Source of the DNA: a virus
Direction: 5' to 3' (one strand)
Length of the DNA: 13,707 nt
Virus genome (UHGV): UHGV-1773339
Shown: piece after piece, positions 277 through 10,192 of the stretch
Layout: every line of letters begins with the position of its first letter
Numbering within the stretch: the stretch's first letter is position 1
The notes under the pieces: model-generated
What the model was told of the DNA's origin: nothing
What the model saw: the letters and a program-made list of their open reading frames with translations, nothing else
Databases searched by the model: none
Program-made: the position numbers and the translations under genes

Positions 277-1446
277 ATGTCCTTGAAAAAGTTATTACAA
301 GATTGTGTTACGCGCGGTCAAGAAATGACCCAAGCAATTGCTATAGCTCAATTCGGTGATGATAGTCCTGAAGCTCGGCGTATCACGCGTAGATGGGGGA
401 TAACTGAAGTAGCAGATTTAATTGGTGTAACTCCTCAAGCAATAAGAGATGCTGAGAAGAACGGGCGTTTACCTGCACCTGACTTTGAAATGAGAGGAAG
501 AGTTGAACGTCGTGCCGGTTATACCATAGATCAAATCAATAGTATGCGAGCTGTTTTTGGCAACCCAAACCAACGGCCACAAGATAAAAACCCAGTTGTG
601 CTTGCTGTTATGTCACACAAAGGCGGCGTTTATAAAACATCGTCTGCAGTACATCAGGCACAATGGCTAGCATTACAAGGTCATCGTGTTCTTTTAGTTG
701 AAGGTAACGATCCTCAGGGAACAGCCTCCATGTATCACGGTTATGTACCTGATTTACATATACATGCCGAGGATACTTTACTGCCATTTTACTTGGGCGA
801 ACGCGATAACGCTGAATATGCTATAAAACCAACATGCTGGCCTGGACTGGACATTATTCCTAGCTGCCTAGCTTTACACCGTATAGAAACAGATCTCATG
901 CAATATCATGCTCAGGGTAAATTGCCTCACCCTCCTCACCTGATGCTACGCGCAGCTATAGAATCAGTTTGGGATAACTACGATGTTATCGTTATAGATA
1001 GTGCTCCAAACCTCGGTACAGGAACCATTAACGTTGTTTGCGCAGCTGACGTTATCGTTGTTGCTACCCCTGCAGAATTATTTGATTACGCCTCTGTTCT
1101 ACAGTTTTTCACAATGCTTCTCGATCTCCTAGAAAGCGTTGACCTAGGCGGATTTGAGCCGACCGTTCGCTTGCTTCTGACTAAATATAGTCTCACTACA
1201 GGAAATCAATCACGATGGATGGAAGAGCAAATAAGAAATACATGGGGATCAATGGTATTACGTCAGGTTGTACGCGTTACCGATGAAGTAGGTAAAGGTC
1301 AGATAAAAATGCGAACAGTATTTGAACAAGCGGCAAACCAGCGTTCAACACTTAATGCATGGAGAAATGCCGTCTCTATATGGGACCCTGTTTGTCGAGA
1401 AATTTTTGATGATCTAATAAAACCTCGCTGGGAGAACGAAGAATGA
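277..1446 (+). CDS. sopA: Plasmid partition ATPase SopA (type Ia ParA with N-terminal DNA-binding extension)
   Basis: 389 aa ORF with ATG start and SD. Deviant Walker A box in 'VMSHKGGVYKTS'. The long N-terminal extension before the ATPase core is typical of type Ia ParA/SopA. The translation closely resembles F-plasmid SopA as I recall it. Stop overlaps the next gene start (ATGA). Confidence 0.93.
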   Translation: MSLKKLLQDCVTRGQEMTQAIAIAQFGDDSPEARRITRRWGITEVADLIGVTPQAIRDAEKNGRLPAPDFEMRGRVERRAGYTIDQINSMRAVFGNPNQRPQDKNPVVLAVMSHKGGVYKTSSAVHQAQWLALQGHRVLLVEGNDPQGTASMYHGYVPDLHIHAEDTLLPFYLGERDNAEYAIKPTCWPGLDIIPSCLALHRIETDLMQYHAQGKLPHPPHLMLRAAIESVWDNYDVIVIDSAPNLGTGTINVVCAADVIVVATPAELFDYASVLQFFTMLLDLLESVDLGGFEPTVRLLLTKYSLTTGNQSRWMEEQIRNTWGSMVLRQVVRVTDEVGKGQIKMRTVFEQAANQRSTLNAWRNAVSIWDPVCREIFDDLIKPRWENEE

Positions 1447-2432
1447 AACAACGCTCTCTTCTAAAAAATGCTCCGGATATTAATCGCATTATGAGTAATA
1501 ATCATCATGCACCTGAACATCAGCCGGTATCACCTATGGTTGGTGATTTAAAACGTCAACTGAGTTCATTAACCGGTAATAGCATAACTTTGCCAGTATG
1601 CGGACGTAATGTTAACTTTAAGTTAGAGACGATCCCCGCAGATAAAGTAGAAATGGCAACAATGGTATGGCTAGGTAATGAGCGTGATCAAGATTTATTA
1701 AATGAATCTTCTCTAGCTGATTTAATTCCATCTTTTCTAACTTCTGGGCAACAAAATCCGGCTTTCGCAAGAAAAGTGTCAGGTATTGTTGAAGTAGCTG
1801 ATGGTTCTCGAAGACGTAAAGCAGCCATTATAACTGGATGCGATTATCGTGTTCTTATTGGCGATTTAGATGATGAACAAATGCAATGGTTATCGCAGAT
1901 AGGCAACGACTATAGACCTATCAGCGCCTATGAAAGGGGGAAAAGATACCTGCGAAGGCTCCATGAATTTGACGGTAACGTAAAATCTTTAGCTGAAGCC
2001 GAAGGCGTGGATAGAAATATTATCAGCCGATGTATTAATACAGCCGGTTTACCTAAAGATATATTGGCAATATTTAACCATCCTGGTGAGTTATCAGCCA
2101 GAGCAGGAGACGCTCTTTTTAAAGCATATCAGGGACAGGAAGCAGCCATGAAAAATGCTGCATCTCAGTTGCTGAGGATGAAAAAATCAGGTGAAAGTTT
2201 AGATGCGCAAAGAATAATACAGGCTCTTCATGATTTCATTATTGTTGAGAAAAACAATTCACATGGAGAGAAAAGGGAAAAGAAATATGGAGACGGTGTT
2301 GTGGCGAAATATGGGAAAAATTTCACAACATTAAAATTAGATAACAGAAAAATACCATCGCACCTAATGAGTAAAATTGAATCTATTCTTGAGGAGGCGT
2401 TTGGAAATTCTTCCGATGTAAAAAATAACTAA
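1443..2432 (+). CDS. sopB: Plasmid partition centromere-binding protein SopB (ParB family)
   Basis: 329 aa ORF translationally coupled to sopA (ATGA overlap at 1443-1446). Recognisable SopB/ParB-like stretches (e.g. 'ITLPVCGR', 'GNERDQ', 'DGSRRRKAA', 'GNDYRPISAYERG'). Position immediately after the ParA gene. Ends at TAA 2430-2432. Confidence 0.92.
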   Translation: MKQRSLLKNAPDINRIMSNNHHAPEHQPVSPMVGDLKRQLSSLTGNSITLPVCGRNVNFKLETIPADKVEMATMVWLGNERDQDLLNESSLADLIPSFLTSGQQNPAFARKVSGIVEVADGSRRRKAAIITGCDYRVLIGDLDDEQMQWLSQIGNDYRPISAYERGKRYLRRLHEFDGNVKSLAEAEGVDRNIISRCINTAGLPKDILAIFNHPGELSARAGDALFKAYQGQEAAMKNAASQLLRMKKSGESLDAQRIIQALHDFIIVEKNNSHGEKREKKYGDGVVAKYGKNFTTLKLDNRKIPSHLMSKIESILEEAFGNSSDVKNN

Positions 2433-2480: not shown

Positions 2481-2768
2481 TTATTCAAAAAATATAAATA
2501 CAAGTAAACACGCCACCACCGGCACAGCAAAATCCATCAGGCTTGCTACATCCCATGCACGCGGATCAAAACCGCCCCACCACGGCATATTCATACGCTT
2601 GCCATGTCCGAACATTTCAATCCAGCGATATTCTGCCTGGGTGTGTTCACGCGCAATGAAGAACGTACAACCGGCTATCGCTCCGTAAGCCCAGTTCCCG
2701 GTAAAAAGACCAATCAGTAGCTGCGCAGCCACAGCACAAAGAGCATGAAGGAAAGGTGTTATATCCAT
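2481..2768 (-). CDS. Small multi-pass membrane protein of unknown function (candidate moron)
   Basis: 95 aa ORF with ATG start. Perfect SD (AAGGAGGAG) sits between the upstream stop TAA and the ATG on the minus strand. Three hydrophobic segments (about residues 5-25, 26-40, 75-94) around a Trp/Gly-rich loop 'MFGHGKRMNMPWWGGFDPRAWD'. No family recognised. Confidence 0.75.
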   Translation of the reverse strand: MDITPFLHALCAVAAQLLIGLFTGNWAYGAIAGCTFFIAREHTQAEYRWIEMFGHGKRMNMPWWGGFDPRAWDVASLMDFAVPVVACLLVFIFFE

Positions 2769-2778
2769 TACTCCTCCT

Positions 2779-3483
2779 TTAACCGATATCGCTTCGGGAA
2801 GTTGATAACAGCTTTAATTCTGACTCAAGTTCATCAACTCTTTCTGTCAGTTTCTGGATATGGTGAATCAGTGGAACAACCAGACGTTCGTACATTACAC
2901 CTTCGGCAACAAGGCCATTGCTGGAAATAGCTTCCGGTGCATCATCTTCGTTAGCTGGTCGCCAGTGTACAAACTGAGGGGCAATTTCTCCTACTTCCTC
3001 GGCAATCAATCCGTAGAATCCCCAGTCACGCCTGTCATTTTCGCATTGCGACCTGTACCACACAGGGCGCATCTTGAAAATGAGATCGGCGTGCTCTGAA
3101 TCTATCGTCTCTACTGAATGTTTATAGCGAATAGACGATGTTGACCGCAGCACAGACGAAATTGCGGGGTCAGGATTAAGATAAAGGTTTGCCGCCGCTG
3201 TAGTCGTGCCCAATCCCCATAAATAAAACGCTTCACGGCCAGTCAGCGGGTAAAAATCTCCACCATAATTACCGCTTTCCAGAGCATTCACTTCCAGTTT
3301 GTTTTTCAGCTTATTATCCACTTCAGTTTTTGTGTATCTGGAGCTGATATCCTGCTTTGCACTGGTCATCTCAGTCTGAAGCGTTGATACTTTTCCGCTA
3401 ATTGAGGAAATATCTTCCTTAGCTTTACTGACATCTCCCTTCAGCGTGGTGATATCTCCCGGAATTACTGTCGATGTAGCCAT
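2779..3483 (-). CDS. Coiled-coil protein with C-terminal peptidase-S74-like intramolecular chaperone domain (tail-fibre/tailspike-type auto-processing domain)
   Basis: 234 aa ORF, ATG start preceded by GAGGGAGA SD. C-terminal half shows the S74/chaperone-of-endosialidase pattern: Ser116...Lys121 dyad spacing ('SSIRYK'), 'DWGFYGLIAEEVGEIAPQFV', 'MYERLVVPLIHHIQKL', terminal coiled coil 'VDELESELKLL'. N-terminal 60 residues are heptad-like coiled coil. Confidence 0.75.
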   Translation of the reverse strand: MATSTVIPGDITTLKGDVSKAKEDISSISGKVSTLQTEMTSAKQDISSRYTKTEVDNKLKNKLEVNALESGNYGGDFYPLTGREAFYLWGLGTTTAAANLYLNPDPAISSVLRSTSSIRYKHSVETIDSEHADLIFKMRPVWYRSQCENDRRDWGFYGLIAEEVGEIAPQFVHWRPANEDDAPEAISSNGLVAEGVMYERLVVPLIHHIQKLTERVDELESELKLLSTSRSDIG

Positions 3484-3492
3484 TTGTCTCCC

Positions 3493-3774
3493 TCACATCC
3501 AGCCACGAAGTTGATGTTCAACTACAACCGCGTATTCATCGAATAATGACGGTGTTTTCACATCATTAATGATGCGCACGTTTACAAAATATCCGTCTTC
3601 CTTAACACATACCGGTTCGCCATCTTCATTCAGCTCTCCGGTTTCTTTGTACACGTTTCCTATCACATCAATGAGAACATTGTTCTGCATCACCTCGTCA
3701 TCGTAATAACCAATGCTATCCATAAAGGCCGAAAAGTCGGCCTTGTTTATGAATTTGAGGGTTAAGTCTCGCAT
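3493..3774 (-). CDS. Hypothetical acidic 93 aa protein, translationally coupled to the tail fibre gene
   Basis: ATG start shares one base with the stop of the upstream fibre gene (TAATG at 3772-3776, minus strand). Its stop is 9 nt before the next ORF start. No motif recognised. The position suggests a fibre accessory or assembly factor. Confidence 0.6.
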   Translation of the reverse strand: MRDLTLKFINKADFSAFMDSIGYYDDEVMQNNVLIDVIGNVYKETGELNEDGEPVCVKEDGYFVNVRIINDVKTPSLFDEYAVVVEHQLRGWM

Positions 3775-5981
3775 TATATTCTTTCTCCCATTTGTGCATC
3801 TGTCAGTTCCTTATGCCAGATACGTAAATTGCGCACGTGTCCAAATAAATGCCTGTTACCTGATATTGATTGACCGCCTATATTTATTGGCCCTTCTGTA
3901 TAACGTTGTCTTGTGTGTTGTGATACACCAACAGCGCCAAAGTTACCGTTTATAACAGCACGCAATTCTTTCTGCTCTGTAAACTTAAACCCAGCAATAA
4001 ACCTGCGGGTTGTCCTGTTACAGTAGGCTTTATACTCGGTCTTTGTTCCTTTTCCGTTAGTTATAATTGAGCGCGCGCCTCCAGAGGTAAAACCAAAATA
4101 CATATAACTTTCATCAGCAACATCCGTTGTTGCGCCAGTTATTGACACGTTAAGAAGCCTTGCTGAACCTTCACTGTTTGGCATTTTGTCCCAGTTGATA
4201 TTAACTTCCATAAGAACGCTTAACGGGGGCGTTGACCAGTTCAGTCTTATTGGCATTATTACCACTTCACTAGCCCGTGTAACTGCCACATCTGATGTAA
4301 CGATAAATGATGATGCACACGATCCTTTTTCAAATTGCGGCGTAGTAAACATTATCTGATCGCCTTTTTTGATCGCCCTTTTATCTGCTCCCATTTCAAA
4401 GCGCCCATACATGCTTTTTGCTTCTGGTGATTTATATGTAAATTCGACGCGTAACCATCCGTTAGCTTCTCTGTATATGACATGATTTACAGCATCCCCA
4501 CCAGAAAAACCTAAAACATCACCAGTTTCGCAATCTATGTAGGAACCAGCTACCAGCGTGTTGCTTGTGCCGTCATCGTTAACGAAAGATATTCTGGGTC
4601 TTAACGTTATAATACCTTCTCCATTTATCTTCTTAACCCTACAGGACAAGGTAACAGATTCATTTGCAGCAACATCAATAACCCTACTGTATCCAGTAGA
4701 TATTATCGTCGCCCTTTCAGTGGTTGATGTTTCCTTTACATCGAACAAACCATATTTAAAACCATATTCATCAACCGATGTGGTTATTTCTATATTCTTG
4801 TCGTCATAGTTCCATAATGAAGGATTGTTACTATTAGTAAATGTATTTGTCCTCTGACCTTCAATTAATAAACCTTCCTTTTCAAAGCGCGGCTCGTTAA
4901 TTTCTGCAAAAGCAAATGAACCTGATTTGTTTATATACGTTGCAGAAGTGGAGCGAGTGAAAGATACAACCTTCTCTGATGGAAAAGTAATAACATCATC
5001 ACCGATAGTTACTTTTTTATAACCAGGAGCGAAACCAGTAATCATTTCCAGCGAATCGTTAAATGGTATCCACACATCAGGAAGCGGCTGCAATACTTGT
5101 TTATACGGCTCCGCAGCCTGGCTTGCATACTCTCTGGCTGCATCCTCACTTGCTTTAGCTGCTGTCTGGCTTGCTGCCGATGCTTGCGCCGAGTTCGCCG
5201 CTGCAGTCTCGCTTGTCTTTGCATTGGTTTCACTGGTTTTTGCAGCTTTTTGACTGTTTGCTGATGCAGTGGCAGAAGCAGCCGCCGCACTTGCAGAACC
5301 AGCTGCGGCACTCTCGCTTTCGGCTGCTGCATCCTGACTGCTTTTCGCCGCAGTTTCACTGACTTTGGCATTCGTTTCGCTGGTCTTCGCTGCCGTCTGG
5401 CTGGACTTTGCGTTAGTTTCGCTCGCCTTCGCGGCTGTTTCGCTATTTTTCGCGTTGGTTTCTGATTTTTTGGCTGCTGTCGCGGAGTTTGCCGATGCAG
5501 TCTGCGAGGTCGCTGCCGCCTGTGCGCTGTTAGCTGCATTCGTTTCTGAGGTTTTCGCCGCGTTCTTCGATGAAGCCGCTGCAGTTTCGGATTTCTTTGC
5601 CGCCGCTGCGCTCTGAGAGGCGGCTTCGGCGTTGCGTGCCGCTTCTTCCACCATTGCCTCAAAACGGCGCAATGCCTCCGGCATGACATCATCTTCCGTC
5701 ATGGCACCGAGAAAATCATTCAGCGTACCTGGTCTGGAACCTTCATAGACGGTAATGGTCCCGGCATGTGAAGGCGGAAAACCTTCAACCAGCAGGGTGA
5801 CGCTGTACTGGCCATACTCAACATCCATGCTGTAACGTCCGGCTTCATCCGGATTTTCAGAAGCCACCGTGTTCACCAGTACCGTGGTGCTGTTACGCTT
5901 TGCCTTCAGTTGAATAGTGCAGTTCTGTATTGGTTTTCCCGCACCATCTTTCAGCACACCTGAGATTTTTACTGCTGCCAT
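3774..5981 (-). CDS. stf: Side tail fibre protein: lambda Stf-like N-terminal anchor, Ala-rich repeat stalk, novel distal region
   Basis: Long ORF. The track begins at a GTG (5987), but the ATG at 5981 gives 'MAAVKISGVLKDG...', matching the conserved Stf N-terminus as I recall it, with GGAG SD upstream. Residues about 120-285 are degenerate Ala-rich 'SETNAK/AAKTSE' repeats. The distal ~450 residues are encoded by lower-GC DNA and end in a LamG/concanavalin-like looking motif ('GNRHLFGHVRNLRIWHKELTDAQM'). Confidence 0.85.
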   Translation of the reverse strand: MAAVKISGVLKDGAGKPIQNCTIQLKAKRNSTTVLVNTVASENPDEAGRYSMDVEYGQYSVTLLVEGFPPSHAGTITVYEGSRPGTLNDFLGAMTEDDVMPEALRRFEAMVEEAARNAEAASQSAAAAKKSETAAASSKNAAKTSETNAANSAQAAATSQTASANSATAAKKSETNAKNSETAAKASETNAKSSQTAAKTSETNAKVSETAAKSSQDAAAESESAAAGSASAAAASATASANSQKAAKTSETNAKTSETAAANSAQASAASQTAAKASEDAAREYASQAAEPYKQVLQPLPDVWIPFNDSLEMITGFAPGYKKVTIGDDVITFPSEKVVSFTRSTSATYINKSGSFAFAEINEPRFEKEGLLIEGQRTNTFTNSNNPSLWNYDDKNIEITTSVDEYGFKYGLFDVKETSTTERATIISTGYSRVIDVAANESVTLSCRVKKINGEGIITLRPRISFVNDDGTSNTLVAGSYIDCETGDVLGFSGGDAVNHVIYREANGWLRVEFTYKSPEAKSMYGRFEMGADKRAIKKGDQIMFTTPQFEKGSCASSFIVTSDVAVTRASEVVIMPIRLNWSTPPLSVLMEVNINWDKMPNSEGSARLLNVSITGATTDVADESYMYFGFTSGGARSIITNGKGTKTEYKAYCNRTTRRFIAGFKFTEQKELRAVINGNFGAVGVSQHTRQRYTEGPINIGGQSISGNRHLFGHVRNLRIWHKELTDAQMGERI
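5133..5630 (-). repeat. In-frame degenerate tandem repeats encoding the Ala/Ser/Thr-rich fibre stalk
   Basis: Repeated gc(a/t)gc-rich DNA encoding reiterated KxSETNAK / TAAKxSE units. This generates the spurious Arg-rich and Ala/Phe-rich ORFs seen in other frames and strands. Confidence 0.7.
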
Positions 5982-5990
5982 ATCCACTCC

Positions 5991-6045: not shown

Positions 6046-6645
6046 TCAGAATTTATAACCGACACCCACGATGAAACCGTCAGTGCGCCAGTCGCCACTG
6101 CCGGAGCCTTCATAAGCAATATCAATGGCCACGGATTCGGTCGGGTTAAACTGCACGCCAGCTCCCCACGCCAGAGACGTGTTGCTGTGGCGACCGTCAT
6201 CACTTCCGGTCAGCACATCGTGCGTTTTCCCCTTGTTGTCAGTTACGCGGAGATAATCCCCGGAGAACGTCGAAACACGGCTGTAAGCCACACCTGCCAT
6301 CGCATAAGCACTGAACCATTCATTCACGCGTACAGATGGCCCCGCCATCATGCTGAACCAGCGGTTACGCACTGAATCTTCATGCCAGCGGGTATCGCTG
6401 TAATGCGTTTTTTGCTCATCTTTGGCATTGGCATAACTGAATGACGTCACCAGCCCCAGCGTGTCCGTAAATTCATAACGGTATTTCACGTTAATGCCCT
6501 TCAGGTCATCACTGCCTGGCATATCAGTATGGGCCTGAAGATACCCGGCGCTTAGTGTGGACTGATGCTCTGCTGCGCTCGCTGGCGTACCAGCGGCAAC
6601 CAGCCAGACTACTGCGGACAGAATAACAGCACATAATTTACGCAT
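6046..6645 (-). CDS. lom: Outer-membrane beta-barrel protein of the Lom/Ail/PagC/OmpX family
   Basis: 199 aa. N-terminal signal peptide ('...AAGTPASAAEH'), alternating amphipathic beta-strand pattern, C-terminal '...DWRTDGFIVGVGYKF' with terminal Phe typical of OMP barrels. Synteny (directly after J) as in lambda. Confidence 0.9.
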   Translation of the reverse strand: MRKLCAVILSAVVWLVAAGTPASAAEHQSTLSAGYLQAHTDMPGSDDLKGINVKYRYEFTDTLGLVTSFSYANAKDEQKTHYSDTRWHEDSVRNRWFSMMAGPSVRVNEWFSAYAMAGVAYSRVSTFSGDYLRVTDNKGKTHDVLTGSDDGRHSNTSLAWGAGVQFNPTESVAIDIAYEGSGSGDWRTDGFIVGVGYKF

Positions 6646-6712: not shown

Positions 6713-9700
6713 TCAGCTGATACTGATGCCTGCGGTGGCTTTCTTCATCACCACAACCAGCAAATCGCTGATACTTGCTGTGGGATACCAGCCATTTACC
6801 CACCATGCTGATACCGAAAACTCCAGTGTCATTACGCCACTGCCTGCAGGCATATCAATAACACCCGTGTAAATCAGAGTATTATCCAGAGCCGTTCGGT
6901 TATAAATTTCAGCCCCGTTTTTCTTCACTATCAGGCGGCATGACGAATAAGTATCGCTATTCTCCCGTTCATGTCTGGCACCGCTGAAAGCCACCGCTGG
7001 AATAACAATTTGCCGGTCAAACGGCTGATCGTCATAAACCCTGACGGTAATGGTCCCTGATGGCCACCGTTCCGGTGCACGGGAGTCCCGGGGGAAAGCT
7101 TTGCCCACTGTTTTAACGAGATCGCCTTCAATCTGGTTCGCGGACAGTTTTCCCAGAACCCGGCAATTCTCGTTAATCGTGACGTTGTTGAGCGTCCCGG
7201 AGTTCGCATTCACGTTACCGCTGATATCGGCATTTTTCGCCGTCAGCCGCCCGTCCGGTGTCAGGGAAAATGCCGGAGGATTACCGCCGCTGGTAATGGT
7301 GGGAGCCGTCAGGTATTTCAGGAACACTTCGTTCATGAATATCTGATCGCCCTGACCAACAAACATCGGCTTTGTGTTGCCATTCGCAGGATTAATCATC
7401 GCAATCCTGTCTGCCGCCAGCAGCACCTGACTCTGCATGCCGTCAGGGGTGTTTTCAATACCGGCACCAATACCCGCGATATAAAGGCGTCCGTCCTGCA
7501 TCTGCTGCAGCTTCACAGCCCACATGCTGTTCAGGTTATTATTTGTATCAACCTGAACCTTCTGTATCTGCTGGATCGCTGCACTCTGGTCTTCCAGTTT
7601 CTTATTGACGGTCTGCGTGATTTCATTACTGACATCCGTGATGGACGTTCTGATTTCCGCCAGGTCAGGCGCAAGCTGACCGTTATCAATCTGCGTCCAC
7701 AGCTCCTGAGCCAGATGGGTTTTCCCTATCTCTCCTTTGAAAAAATCCAGATAGCCGGATGCATCATCACTCGGCTGGCCAACAGCCTCCACGAATGCCG
7801 ATTTGCCAACGGTGTTCACACTGCGGATGTAAAAATAATAATCATGGCCCGGCTTGATATTGATACTGGCAGCTATCCAGTACAGCGCCGTGCCAAGATA
7901 GCGGGCTGTGGTTTCAACCTGCCTGATATCCGCAATCCGTTTTTCCGAGAACCAGAACTCAAACTGTACCGTCGGGTCATAAACCGCAAGATGCGGCGTG
8001 GCGGTTATCTGAAAATAGCCCGGCGTCAGCTCAATCCGCGACGGCGCTGCCGGTGCGGCAATCCGGAACGATACCGACGCCGGATCGCCCTGCTGCCCCC
8101 AGGCATTTGCCGCCCGGACTGTCAGCCTGTAGTTTCCCAACGCCAGTTGCGTGAAGCGGTATGTGGTTTCCGTCGTCCGGGCCGTGCTGACCAGCCGCTC
8201 ACTGCCGTCATCCGCTGCCACGGTCAGGCGAAGCATAAAGCTCACGCCCTTCACCACCTTCGGCGTGTCCCAGCGCGCCAGCACCTGGTATTCCCCGCTG
8301 TCTGCGGTGACTTCGGCGGTCAGGTGCTGCACCGCTGGCGGCGTGACACCATTCACCGTGCCGCTCTGGTCGCCGTCAAAGTGCGCCCCGTTATCCACGA
8401 TGGCTTCTTTTTCCGGTACATGCTGCACGGCAGTGATGGCATACGTGCCGTCGTCGTTCTCACGGATACTCACGCAGCGGAACAGGCGCTGGCGCAGCGT
8501 CGGCAGCTTCAGCCCCCACACGCTGTATTCTGCAACGCCGTCAGGAACCCGGCTCACTTTCACCTTCACGCCGTCGGTGACGGACTGGACCTCCACGCTG
8601 ACCGGATTGCCACTTCCGTCAACCAGGCTTATCAGCGTGGTGCCGGAGGATGGCAGCGTGATTTCACGGTCGAGCGTCAGCGTCCGGGTCTGGCTGTTCA
8701 CAGCCAGCACGCGCCCGCCGATGCTGATACCGGCATAGTCATCATCGCAGATTTCAATGACATCGCCCGGTACATGGCGAAGCCCTTCAGCACCCACGCT
8801 GAAGTCCACGGTCTGCGTTTCCAGCAGTTCCGTTTTAATCAGCCACAGCCCGGCGCGGTGTGCCTGCCCCCGGCTGGTACAGCCAAAGGCATCCATCTTC
8901 GTGACGTTACGACCGTAACGGGCAATGGCCTGCGTATCTTCAACAAGCTCTGTCGCCGTCTCCCAGCCGTTATTCGGGTCAATCCAGTTCACCTCAACGG
9001 CATTATGGCGGTCCTTCAGGGCGCTGAAACTGTAGCGGAACGGCGCGCCATCATCCGGCATCACCACATTACTGCGGTTATAGGTCCACACCTTATCCGA
9101 CGGTCGGTCCTGCACGAACGTCAGCGTCTGCCCGTTCCATACCGGCATACAGCGCATCGCCGAGCAGAAATCACTGAGCACATCCCACGCCTTGCGCTGT
9201 GTGGTCAGGTACGCATTACAGGTGATGCGCGGCTCCGTGCCGCCAAAGCCGTCCGGCACTGACTGGTCGCAGTACTGGCCGATGACATACAGCGCCCATT
9301 TATCCACATCCGCCGCACCAAGACGTTTCCCCATGCCGTAGCGCGGGTGGGTCAGCATATCCCACAGACACCAGGCCATGTTGTTGCTGTATGCCGGTTT
9401 AAACGTTCCGTCCCAGATACCGCTGTATTGCCGCGTCTGCGGGTTATAATTCGACGGCACCTGCAGAATACGCCCGCGCAGATGATAATTACGGCTCACC
9501 TGCTGGCTGCCGAACTGCTCCGAGTCCACCTGCACGCCGACCAGTGCCGTGTTCGGGTAGCACTGTTTCACATCGATGATTTCGGTGTATGACGACCAGA
9601 GCGTTTTGTTCTGCAGCTGGTCTGTGGTGCTGTCCGGCGTCATCCTGCGCATCCGTATATTGAACGGGCGCGGCGGCAGGTTATCCACCACCACCGAGGC

Positions 9701-10192
9701 CAGATACTGCGAGGTGGTTTTGCCCTTAATGGTGATGTCTTTTTCCGTCACCCAGCCACCGTTACGCTGTATCTGAACCAGCAGTCGGACCTCCGACGGA
9801 TTCCTGTCACCCTTTGAGGTGGTTTCCACCAGTGCCTGTACACCGAAGGTAAAGCGCAGACGGTCGATGTTTGCCGACGTGATGGTCCGGGTGATCGGCG
9901 TGTCATATTTCACTTCCGTACCCAGCACCGTCTCGGAGCCGGAGGATTCAAATCCCTCCGGCGGTGTCTGCTCCTGCTCACCTGCCCGGAAAACCACCGT
10001 GACACCGGAGATATTGGTATTCCCCTCACTGTCCAGCACTGGCGTACTGTTCAGCAGCACGCTTTTTAATCCATCCACCGGACCTTCAACCGGCCCTTCG
10101 CTGATGGCATCGATCACACTCAGCAACTGCGTGGACTTCAGGTTGTCCTTCGCTTCGCGCGGGGTATGCCCCTTACTGCTGCCTTTACCCAT
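6713..10192 (-). CDS. J: Tail tip / host specificity protein J (central tail fibre)
   Basis: 1159 aa ORF with ATG start, N-terminus '[20 protein letters not shown]' as in lambda gpJ. Size and position after I match the lambda order. The final ~1 kb of the gene has lower GC, as expected for a receptor-binding region. Confidence 0.95.

Follow-up and report, generated by a model that had tools for sequence, protein, structure and literature searches.

Why should a phage keep a chaperone domain in a gene of its own, with hardly any fibre in front of it? The question is raised by a minus-strand open reading frame (ORF) of 234 codons in the virus genome UHGV-1773339, a stretch of 13,707 nucleotides that is called the window below. 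The encoded protein ends in a peptidase S74 intramolecular chaperone (IMC) domain. We find that the ORF occupies the third position in a portable, horizontally mobile cassette that encodes a lectin-type side fibre, a protein of 93 amino acids (aa) and an S74-terminated fibre. As to its role, we consider it reasonably probable that the protein is a mini-fibre, that is, a trimeric coiled-coil stub that remains after autocleavage and, docked by its N-terminal end, forms a distal element or a branch of the side fibre.

The 234-codon ORF and its predicted product

The ORF runs on the minus strand from an ATG at 3483 to a stop codon at 2779-2781. Its parts are as follows.

2779-3483, minus strand: stand-alone S74/IMC mini-fibre ORF of 234 aa, stop codon included (ORF list and sequence)
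3488-3494, minus strand: Shine-Dalgarno sequence GAGGGAG, 4 nt 5' of the ATG and overlapping the TGA of the 93-aa gene (read from the sequence)
3439-3483, minus strand: residues 1-15, MATSTVIPGDITTLK, conserved N-terminal motif and putative docking peptide (motif common to the third-gene alleles)
3328-3465, minus strand: residues 7-52, heptad-repeat alpha-helical coiled coil, the shaft (heptad count and AlphaFold2 [AF2] model)
3139-3288, minus strand: residues 66-115, short pre-cleavage tip region with R113-S114-T115 as last residues (conserved together with the IMC)
3121-3138, minus strand: S116-S-I-R-Y-K121, predicted scissile Ser and activating Lys, S-x4-K (invariant; register of pb1)
2782-3138, minus strand: residues 116-234, peptidase S74 IMC domain with C-terminal coiled-coil helix at 198-232 (Pfam PF13884, Foldseek)

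An initial annotation, made from the sequence alone, had proposed an S74 domain from S116 onwards (nt 3138-2782), a catalytic S116/K121 dyad, a coiled-coil N-terminal half, a separate start with its own ribosome-binding site and a predicted processed product of ~12 kDa. All five proposals held up. In a profile search, the Pfam family PF13884 (Peptidase_S74) matched residues 116-172 over profile positions 1-57 of 58 with an E-value of 4e-6 and 27.5 bits (the gathering cut-off is 22 bits), and the same match is precomputed on the cluster representatives of the homologues. The AF2 monomer was confident over residues ~120-232, with predicted local distance difference test (pLDDT) values of 81-93 per 10-residue block between residues 131 and 230. 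Foldseek gave as best matches in the PDB the MyRF ICA domain 7dc3 (E 2e-5, probability 1.00), GA-1 3gud and endoNF 3gw6. By sequence, the best PDB match was the S74 end of LtfA, the L-shaped fibre of DT57C (8hqz_d, E 4.7e-6). A second heptad pattern occupies residues 199-233.

The candidate active site is strongly conserved. S116, S117 and K121 were invariant in an alignment of 21 sequences and across five different alleles; in an alignment of 48 sequences, K121 was invariant and S116 was conserved in at least 90%. T115-S116...K121 stands in the same register as Thr1263/Ser1264/Lys1269 of T5 pb1, in which Lys1269 activates Ser1264 and Thr1263 precedes it (PMC4690869). The Arg at position -14 that would correspond to Arg1250 of pb1 is absent here. 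An Arg at position -3, R113, is conserved in at least 90% of the sequences and might substitute for Arg1250 as sensor of the neighbouring chain.

In the N-terminal half, I, L, M or V fill 77% of the a and d positions of residues 7-52 and 0% of the other positions. The AF2 monomer has a helix across residues 9-49, and a PDB sequence search returned a weak similarity of the coiled coil to the gp26 tail needle (4lin, E 0.005). Between the shaft and the predicted cleavage site lies the tip region, where the alignments show no variation at N99 and hardly any at T93/T94, A98 and R113. Tip and IMC are conserved together in the longer prophage fibres P0033-P0036, P0042 and P0045. The predicted mature part, residues 1-115, has a computed mass of 12.3 kDa. 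Judged by its sequence, the ORF appears to encode a minimal fibre protein with a C-terminal self-cleaving folding domain, cleavage being a prediction.

A three-gene cassette with a variable third gene

The initial annotation placed the ORF downstream of a fibre gene. This order is correct, but the two are not direct neighbours, for a conserved 93-aa gene (3493-3774) lies between them. The annotation also overlooked both the third-gene position of the ORF in a conserved cassette and the public annotation that already exists for the family, whose members are named 'tail fiber domain-containing protein', 'chaperone of endosialidase' or 'putative lateral tail fiber chaperone'. The first two genes of the module are:

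3774-5987, minus strand: side tail fibre (Stf-like, 737 aa), first gene of the module
3493-3774, minus strand: 93-aa cassette partner (PHROG 1361), second gene of the module

Between the window and phage PeterMerian, the fibre gene, the gene of 92-93 aa and the S74 gene are collinear, with protein identities of 42%, 48% and 55%, respectively. This gene order recurs at eleven related loci that represent five phage lineages (lambdoid, Drexlerviridae, Nonagvirus, Dhillonvirus and T5-like), among them those of JenP2, PhiR46_1, 2G7b, PhiR47_1, mar004NP2 and KarlBarth. The 93-aa family is known from 182 phage records, including rV5-like myoviruses, and wherever the record is annotated the gene directly follows a fibre gene. 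A fold search with the 93-aa protein gave no informative match.

The third gene varies widely in size. Its product has 348 aa in the Nonagvirus JenP2, 345-346 and 294 aa in lambdoid phages, and 589 aa in the T5-like mar004NP2. This last protein, orf135 of mar004NP2 and AKFV33, was called an ltfB orthologue by the original authors (PMC6563131). A C-terminal S74 domain was present in the four complete non-Dhillonvirus alleles that were scanned and also, as judged by its SDSRLK motif, in the T5-like allele. All alleles, from 225 to 589 aa, start with M[AV]TxT[VIN]IPxDIxxLK, so that the first ~15 residues are kept; the middles are unrelated, and the S74 domains are ~25% identical between alleles. 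The 234-aa allele represents the shortest form, which is devoid of the globular insert of the longer alleles. In KarlBarth, a frame change splits the third gene into two ORFs (locus L013, 4270-5149).

The T5-like 589-aa fibre of mar004NP2 (locus L011, 5289-7058) begins with the MVTKTVIPTDITKLK motif and is preceded by a 92-aa gene. Residues 1-26 of this allele were covered in full only in T5-like phages, and the T5-like phages checked (mar004NP2, EC104, EC142, JLBYU40 and L6jm) have the 93-aa gene as well. LtfB of DT57C was considered as a further carrier of the N-terminal motif and rejected: only residues 27-69 of the T5-like allele match there, and they do so inside ltfA. The second fibre of T5-like phages thus appears to be attached by two or more distinct systems.

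The variable part of the cassette is the head of the large fibre. The side fibre has a lambda-type anchor at its N-terminus, followed by an Ala-rich coiled coil and, at the C-terminus, by a lectin-like head that is hypervariable. Its anchor matches Pfam phage_tail_N (E 9e-67) and, by the N-terminal domain, PDB 9e7m; residues 374-572 carry the NCBIfam domain GTA_spike_fiber (GTA head spike fiber), which is of a sugar-binding type. Over the C-terminal ~440 aa (3774-5087), side fibres of otherwise near-identical phages are only 41-62% identical. The hypervariable head is framed by the conserved segments PLPDVWIPFNDSL... and ...HLFGHVRNLRIWHKELTD. Where the heads vary, the mini-fibre retains 94% and the 93-aa protein 82-92% identity, and mini-proteins that are 94% identical are paired with heads that are 44% identical. 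Conversely, a fibre tail of 77% identity is paired with an unrelated 346-aa S74 allele. Because the head is hypervariable and the mini-fibre and the 93-aa protein are conserved, the head of the big fibre, and not the mini-fibre, would be the diversifying receptor-binding part and seems to be where the cassette actually determines host range. The 234-aa allele shows neither the diversification nor the globular middle domain of a receptor-binding type.

Phage 21 contains the cassette in a shorter form (locus L012, 1944-4585). It has the same type of fibre (39% identity over the whole head), a 92-aa gene and a membrane protein gene; an S74 gene is missing between the 92-aa gene and the membrane protein gene, where it would not even fit. 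One and the same cassette thus exists with and without its third gene, as a presence/absence polymorphism.

The gene is common. It was found in 746 of 5,426 complete Escherichia coli genomes (about one in seven), in 740 of them with at least 80% coverage; the NCBI Prokaryotic Genome Annotation Pipeline (PGAP) labels it there 'tail fiber domain-containing protein'. Of two homologue clusters, one (234 aa) has 2,928 members and the other (227 aa) 650. The lambdoid phages IdasGreatGrand, PhiR49_1 and PhiR55_1 encode 234-aa proteins with 94-95% identity over the full length, and an identical copy (100%) of the 234-aa ORF resides on the E. coli plasmid NZ_CP019258.1. More distant homologues of 225-231 aa (~55-60% identity) come from the ~50-kb genomes of virulent Drexlerviridae; the full-length protein is present in about 40 virulent Drexlerviridae of the Tempevirinae, including PeterMerian, KarlJaspers, SECphi27 and swan01 (phage collection). 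The mini-fibre gene is intact in E. coli C43(DE3), a BL21 derivative, where it belongs to a defective prophage with a side-fibre gene cut short by IS3 (locus L006, 2782-6009). With an intact copy in the B-strain lineage, common expression hosts already contain the mini-fibre gene.

One explanation put forward by the initial annotation was that the ORF is a relic of a fibre module swap. Spelled out, this reading would make it a non-functional 3' remnant of a longer fibre gene whose start codon arose by chance. Tip and IMC (residues ~70-234) are indeed 53-64% identical to the C-termini of the longer prophage fibres P0033-P0036, P0042 and P0045, and some copies are damaged: the prophage copy of ATCC 43886 has an internal stop (locus L008, 4001-4705), and the 294-aa allele of PhiR47_1 terminates inside the S74 domain (locus L010, 4501-5385). 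Against a relic, length and N-terminus are kept from lambdoid prophages to virulent Drexlerviridae, and independent alleles share the N-terminal motif. In pairwise comparisons of five lambdoid copies, the ratio of non-synonymous to synonymous substitution rates (dN/dS) ranged over 0.13-0.29 for the whole gene; taken separately, residues 1-115 gave 0.13-0.40 and the IMC 0.08-0.18. These values are well under 1 and point to purifying selection on both halves. The claim that the ORF would be the 3' end of a longer fibre gene in relatives failed as well, since in none of the relatives examined was this the case. When residues 1-115 were compared with 1.84 billion representative proteins, the whole mature part aligned only to the N-termini of short proteins, and the matches in long proteins were to generic heptad repeats. 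Among the latter, P0223 (740 aa) was examined as a long protein containing the mature part and rejected as a low-complexity heptad repeat without true homology. As a description of the present gene, the relic is refuted by the conservation, the dN/dS values, the lack of a relative with a longer ORF and the scan of 1.84 billion proteins; we regard it as very improbable. The similarity of tip and chaperone to the ends of longer fibres is another matter, and suggests a possible origin of the gene in an exchange of this kind.

Candidate roles of the mini-fibre

The favoured role, a docked coiled-coil stub, can be described as a sequence of steps. The C-terminal S74 domain would set three chains in register, with the long terminal helices forming a coiled coil. 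This register would template the folding of the short tip (residues ~66-115) and, towards the N-terminus, of a heptad coiled coil of ~45-60 residues. Once a correct trimer has formed, S116, activated by K121, would cut the T115-S116 bond and the chaperone would leave. The product would be a trimer of 12.3-kDa chains, a stub of roughly 10 nm, that docks via MATSTVIPGDITTLK either onto a conserved part of the side fibre or onto the 93-aa protein. Trimerisation, autocleavage, incorporation into the virion and the docking partner are what we infer here for the mini-fibre.

Where would such a stub be attached? The virion anchor of the side fibre differs between lineages (25% identity between the lambda-type N-terminal domain and the N-terminus of the Drexlerviridae fibre), whereas the N-terminus of the mini-fibre is conserved. 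This contrast suggests a conserved partner, which would lie within the cassette itself. Because the mini-fibre is conserved and the head is hypervariable, a generic role, such as structural or mechanical support or the binding of a conserved surface feature, is more likely than strain-specific receptor choice. The contrast between anchor and N-terminus, the variation of the head, the independent assortment and phage 21 together favour the reading of the mini-fibre as an optional accessory piece.

Known systems offer several comparisons. T5 pb1, the K1F endosialidase and the GA-1 neck appendage carry a domain of the same S74 family (PF13884) with a long C-terminal coiled-coil helix. Their chains, however, are ~650-1,400 residues long and include, ahead of the terminal chaperone, a large domain that binds a receptor or acts as an enzyme; the mini-fibre has only 115 residues, a coiled coil and a tip of ~50 residues, before the chaperone and is a separate gene product. 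From the same cassette come orf135 of AKFV33/mar004NP2, the 'endosialidase-like protein' of JenP2 and the allele of 2G7b/PhiR46_1, which share position, N-terminal motif and S-x4-K dyad; these longer alleles have an extra globular middle of ~110-350 residues that could bind a receptor and that is missing from the 234-aa allele. LtfB of DT57C and gp15 of phiEco32 are likewise S74-terminated proteins encoded downstream of the main fibre, each the second protein in a branched lateral fibre. According to genetic evidence, LtfB joins the virion only through LtfA, by its N-terminal region (PMC4728585), which gives a precedent for an accessory second fibre protein. The third gene resembles an LtfB-type slot in that it lies downstream of the main fibre gene in one unit and has, across alleles, a conserved N-terminus and a variable remainder. 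It differs in that DT57C LtfB has an N-terminus of the kind seen in gp15 of phiEco32, without the motif of residues 1-26 and without a 93-aa gene nearby, and in that LtfB is a demonstrated host-range determinant, whereas the mini-fibre is conserved and much shorter.

In BASEL phages, a second precedent, distal fibres with a T5-like chaperone join proximal fibres, one of them with a galectin-like domain. Direct orthologues of the mini-fibre in this collection, bas05_0029 and bas06_0035 (225-231 aa, 55-60% identity), are known from annotation only. Among classes from structure prediction, TC7 of RBPseg is a further candidate group, whose members may be the mini-fibres themselves. Short trimeric coiled-coil rods whose register is set from the C-terminus are also found in T4 fibritin (foldon) and in gp26 of the P22/Sf6 type; their trimerisation unit is not homologous, and the foldon stays on the mature protein, unlike the S74 domain, for which removal by cleavage is expected. 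These comparisons place the mini-fibre among the S74-terminated accessory proteins of multi-protein lateral fibres, as a small version of a familiar design that calls for no new mechanism.

Several observations weigh against a docked stub. For an element that binds a receptor, its mature part is very small, and its conservation (94%) next to a head with 44% identity is not what typical receptor-binding proteins show. Residues 58-115 had pLDDT values below 50 in the AF2 monomer. The absence of the S74 gene from phage 21 means that the role of the mini-fibre is dispensable there. No experiment or proteomic record that places the protein or its N-terminal fragment in virions was found in the literature: the virion data sets of Michniewski et al., with 5-8 proteins detected each, do not cover the gene, and a search of work on mass spectrometry of endosialidase chaperones and on Tempevirinae proteomics turned up nothing on the mini-fibre family. 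A functional study of the family was not found in the literature either. Finally, the GenBank records of the BASEL phages call the Drexlerviridae orthologues 'putative lateral tail fiber chaperone'.

This last name expresses a different role, that of a non-virion assembly factor that acts in trans on the side fibre, assisting in its trimerisation or folding, for instance as a nucleus for its coiled coil, and is then cleaved and discarded. The initial annotation had left the choice between a mini-fibre and such a trans-acting trimerisation factor undecided; we favour the mini-fibre, as probable, over the trans-acting factor, which is possible and rather less than likely. The location downstream of the fibre gene is the usual place of tail-fibre assembly genes, the side fibre has no S74 domain of its own (none was seen in the Pfam scan), and the protein is conserved rather than diversifying, all of which would suit an assembly factor. 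Yet the S74 alleles assort independently of the fibre head, in that near-identical mini-proteins accompany divergent heads and the 77%-identical fibre tail goes with an unrelated 346-aa allele, and phage 21, whose cassette has this type of fibre along with the 93-aa gene and the membrane protein, lacks an S74 gene altogether. Neither co-variation nor obligatory co-occurrence with a client tip, as would mark a Tfa-type protein, was observed. Searches of Pfam, NCBIfam and PHROGs gave no match of the mini-fibre to a Tfa-type family, and those PHROG matches that have a functional category are all tail or head structural proteins. Across alleles it is the N-terminal peptide and not the S74 domain (~25%) that is most conserved, and the invariant catalytic dyad implies the release of a mature N-terminal product. 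In the structures described, the chaperone acts on its own fused chain (PMC4690869); no published statement on whether S74 chaperones act in trans was found in the accessible literature.

T4 fibritin combines a coiled coil with a C-terminal trimerisation unit. The parallel with this architecture suggests a further role, a conserved brace or sensor that does not bind a receptor and that, as a fibritin-like coiled-coil strut on the tail, keeps the side fibre in place, positions it or draws it back. Such a strut could stay conserved while the fibre head varies. For second fibres that are conserved, the BASEL authors suggest roles that are 'more mechanical', and a weak density in DT57C was read as LtfB folded back onto the tail tip (PMC4728585). 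However, tail-tip proteins differ between the lineages that share the N-terminal motif, so that a contact outside the cassette would presumably have had to evolve repeatedly. We regard the brace as rather unlikely. Similarly unlikely, in our estimate, is an intermediate between assembly aid and brace, in which the mini-protein nucleates or locks the trimeric, lectin-headed side fibre, perhaps via the 93-aa protein, and then stays as a cap or brace. If true, it would be the first S74 domain protein acting between chains of different genes, and it would explain why the protein is conserved in five siphovirus lineages while the head diversifies.

The transcription unit and the significance of the family

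The window belongs to an E. coli phage-plasmid, N15-like or lambdoid. PhiR46_1, one of the close relatives, has a telR site, ParA and ParB. The remaining features of the window are listed here.

277-1446, plus strand: sopA
1443-2432, plus strand: sopB
2449-2475, both strands: bidirectional hairpin terminator with a 10-bp stem, between the fibre unit and sopB (terminator scan)
2481-2768, minus strand: 95-aa predicted membrane protein (PHROG 1443), last gene of the temperate versions (PHROG match)
6019-5998: strong terminator-like hairpin after lom, upstream of the side-fibre gene (terminator scan)
6046-6645 (lom) and 6713-10192 (J), minus strand: end of a lambda-type tail region with the order H, M, L, K, I, J and then lom

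After lom follows, on the minus strand, a unit of four genes: side fibre, 93-aa gene, S74 gene and 95-aa membrane protein gene. They are tightly packed, with overlapping or adjacent signals and with terminators at both borders. The start of the 93-aa gene overlaps the stop of the side-fibre gene (TGATG), and the membrane protein gene has its own AGGAGG site directly after the stop codon of the S74 gene. On the minus strand between 5987 and 2481, the scan found no terminator-like site with more than three G-C pairs; the only two sites within the unit, at 4700-4683 and 2526-2509, are weak, with three G-C pairs each. Since the hairpin after lom stands upstream of the fibre gene, transcription of the fibre unit probably depends on read-through from the late genes.

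The start of the side-fibre gene was called at GTG 5987. All relatives begin two codons later, with MAAVKISG, and the true start is therefore probably ATG 5981. The 95-aa membrane protein is 91% identical to a 'putative membrane protein' of phage 21 and was not found in the virulent-phage cassettes examined; it could have a surface or exclusion function expressed in the lysogen. An ORF of 515 codons (7715-9262, plus strand) that lies antisense within gene J is most likely a spurious product of composition.

The S74 gene marks a portable side-fibre cassette of temperate and virulent E. coli siphoviruses. Whether it acts as docked distal stub, brace or assembly aid is relevant for attempts to re-target lambda-type particles or therapeutic siphoviruses by side-fibre swaps, as its role would tell which accessory genes must travel with a swapped fibre. 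With 115 residues, mostly coiled coil, the mini-fibre is about the smallest natural S74 substrate, and this small size makes it a convenient model for the templating of trimers by S74 domains and for the sensing of assembly before cleavage.

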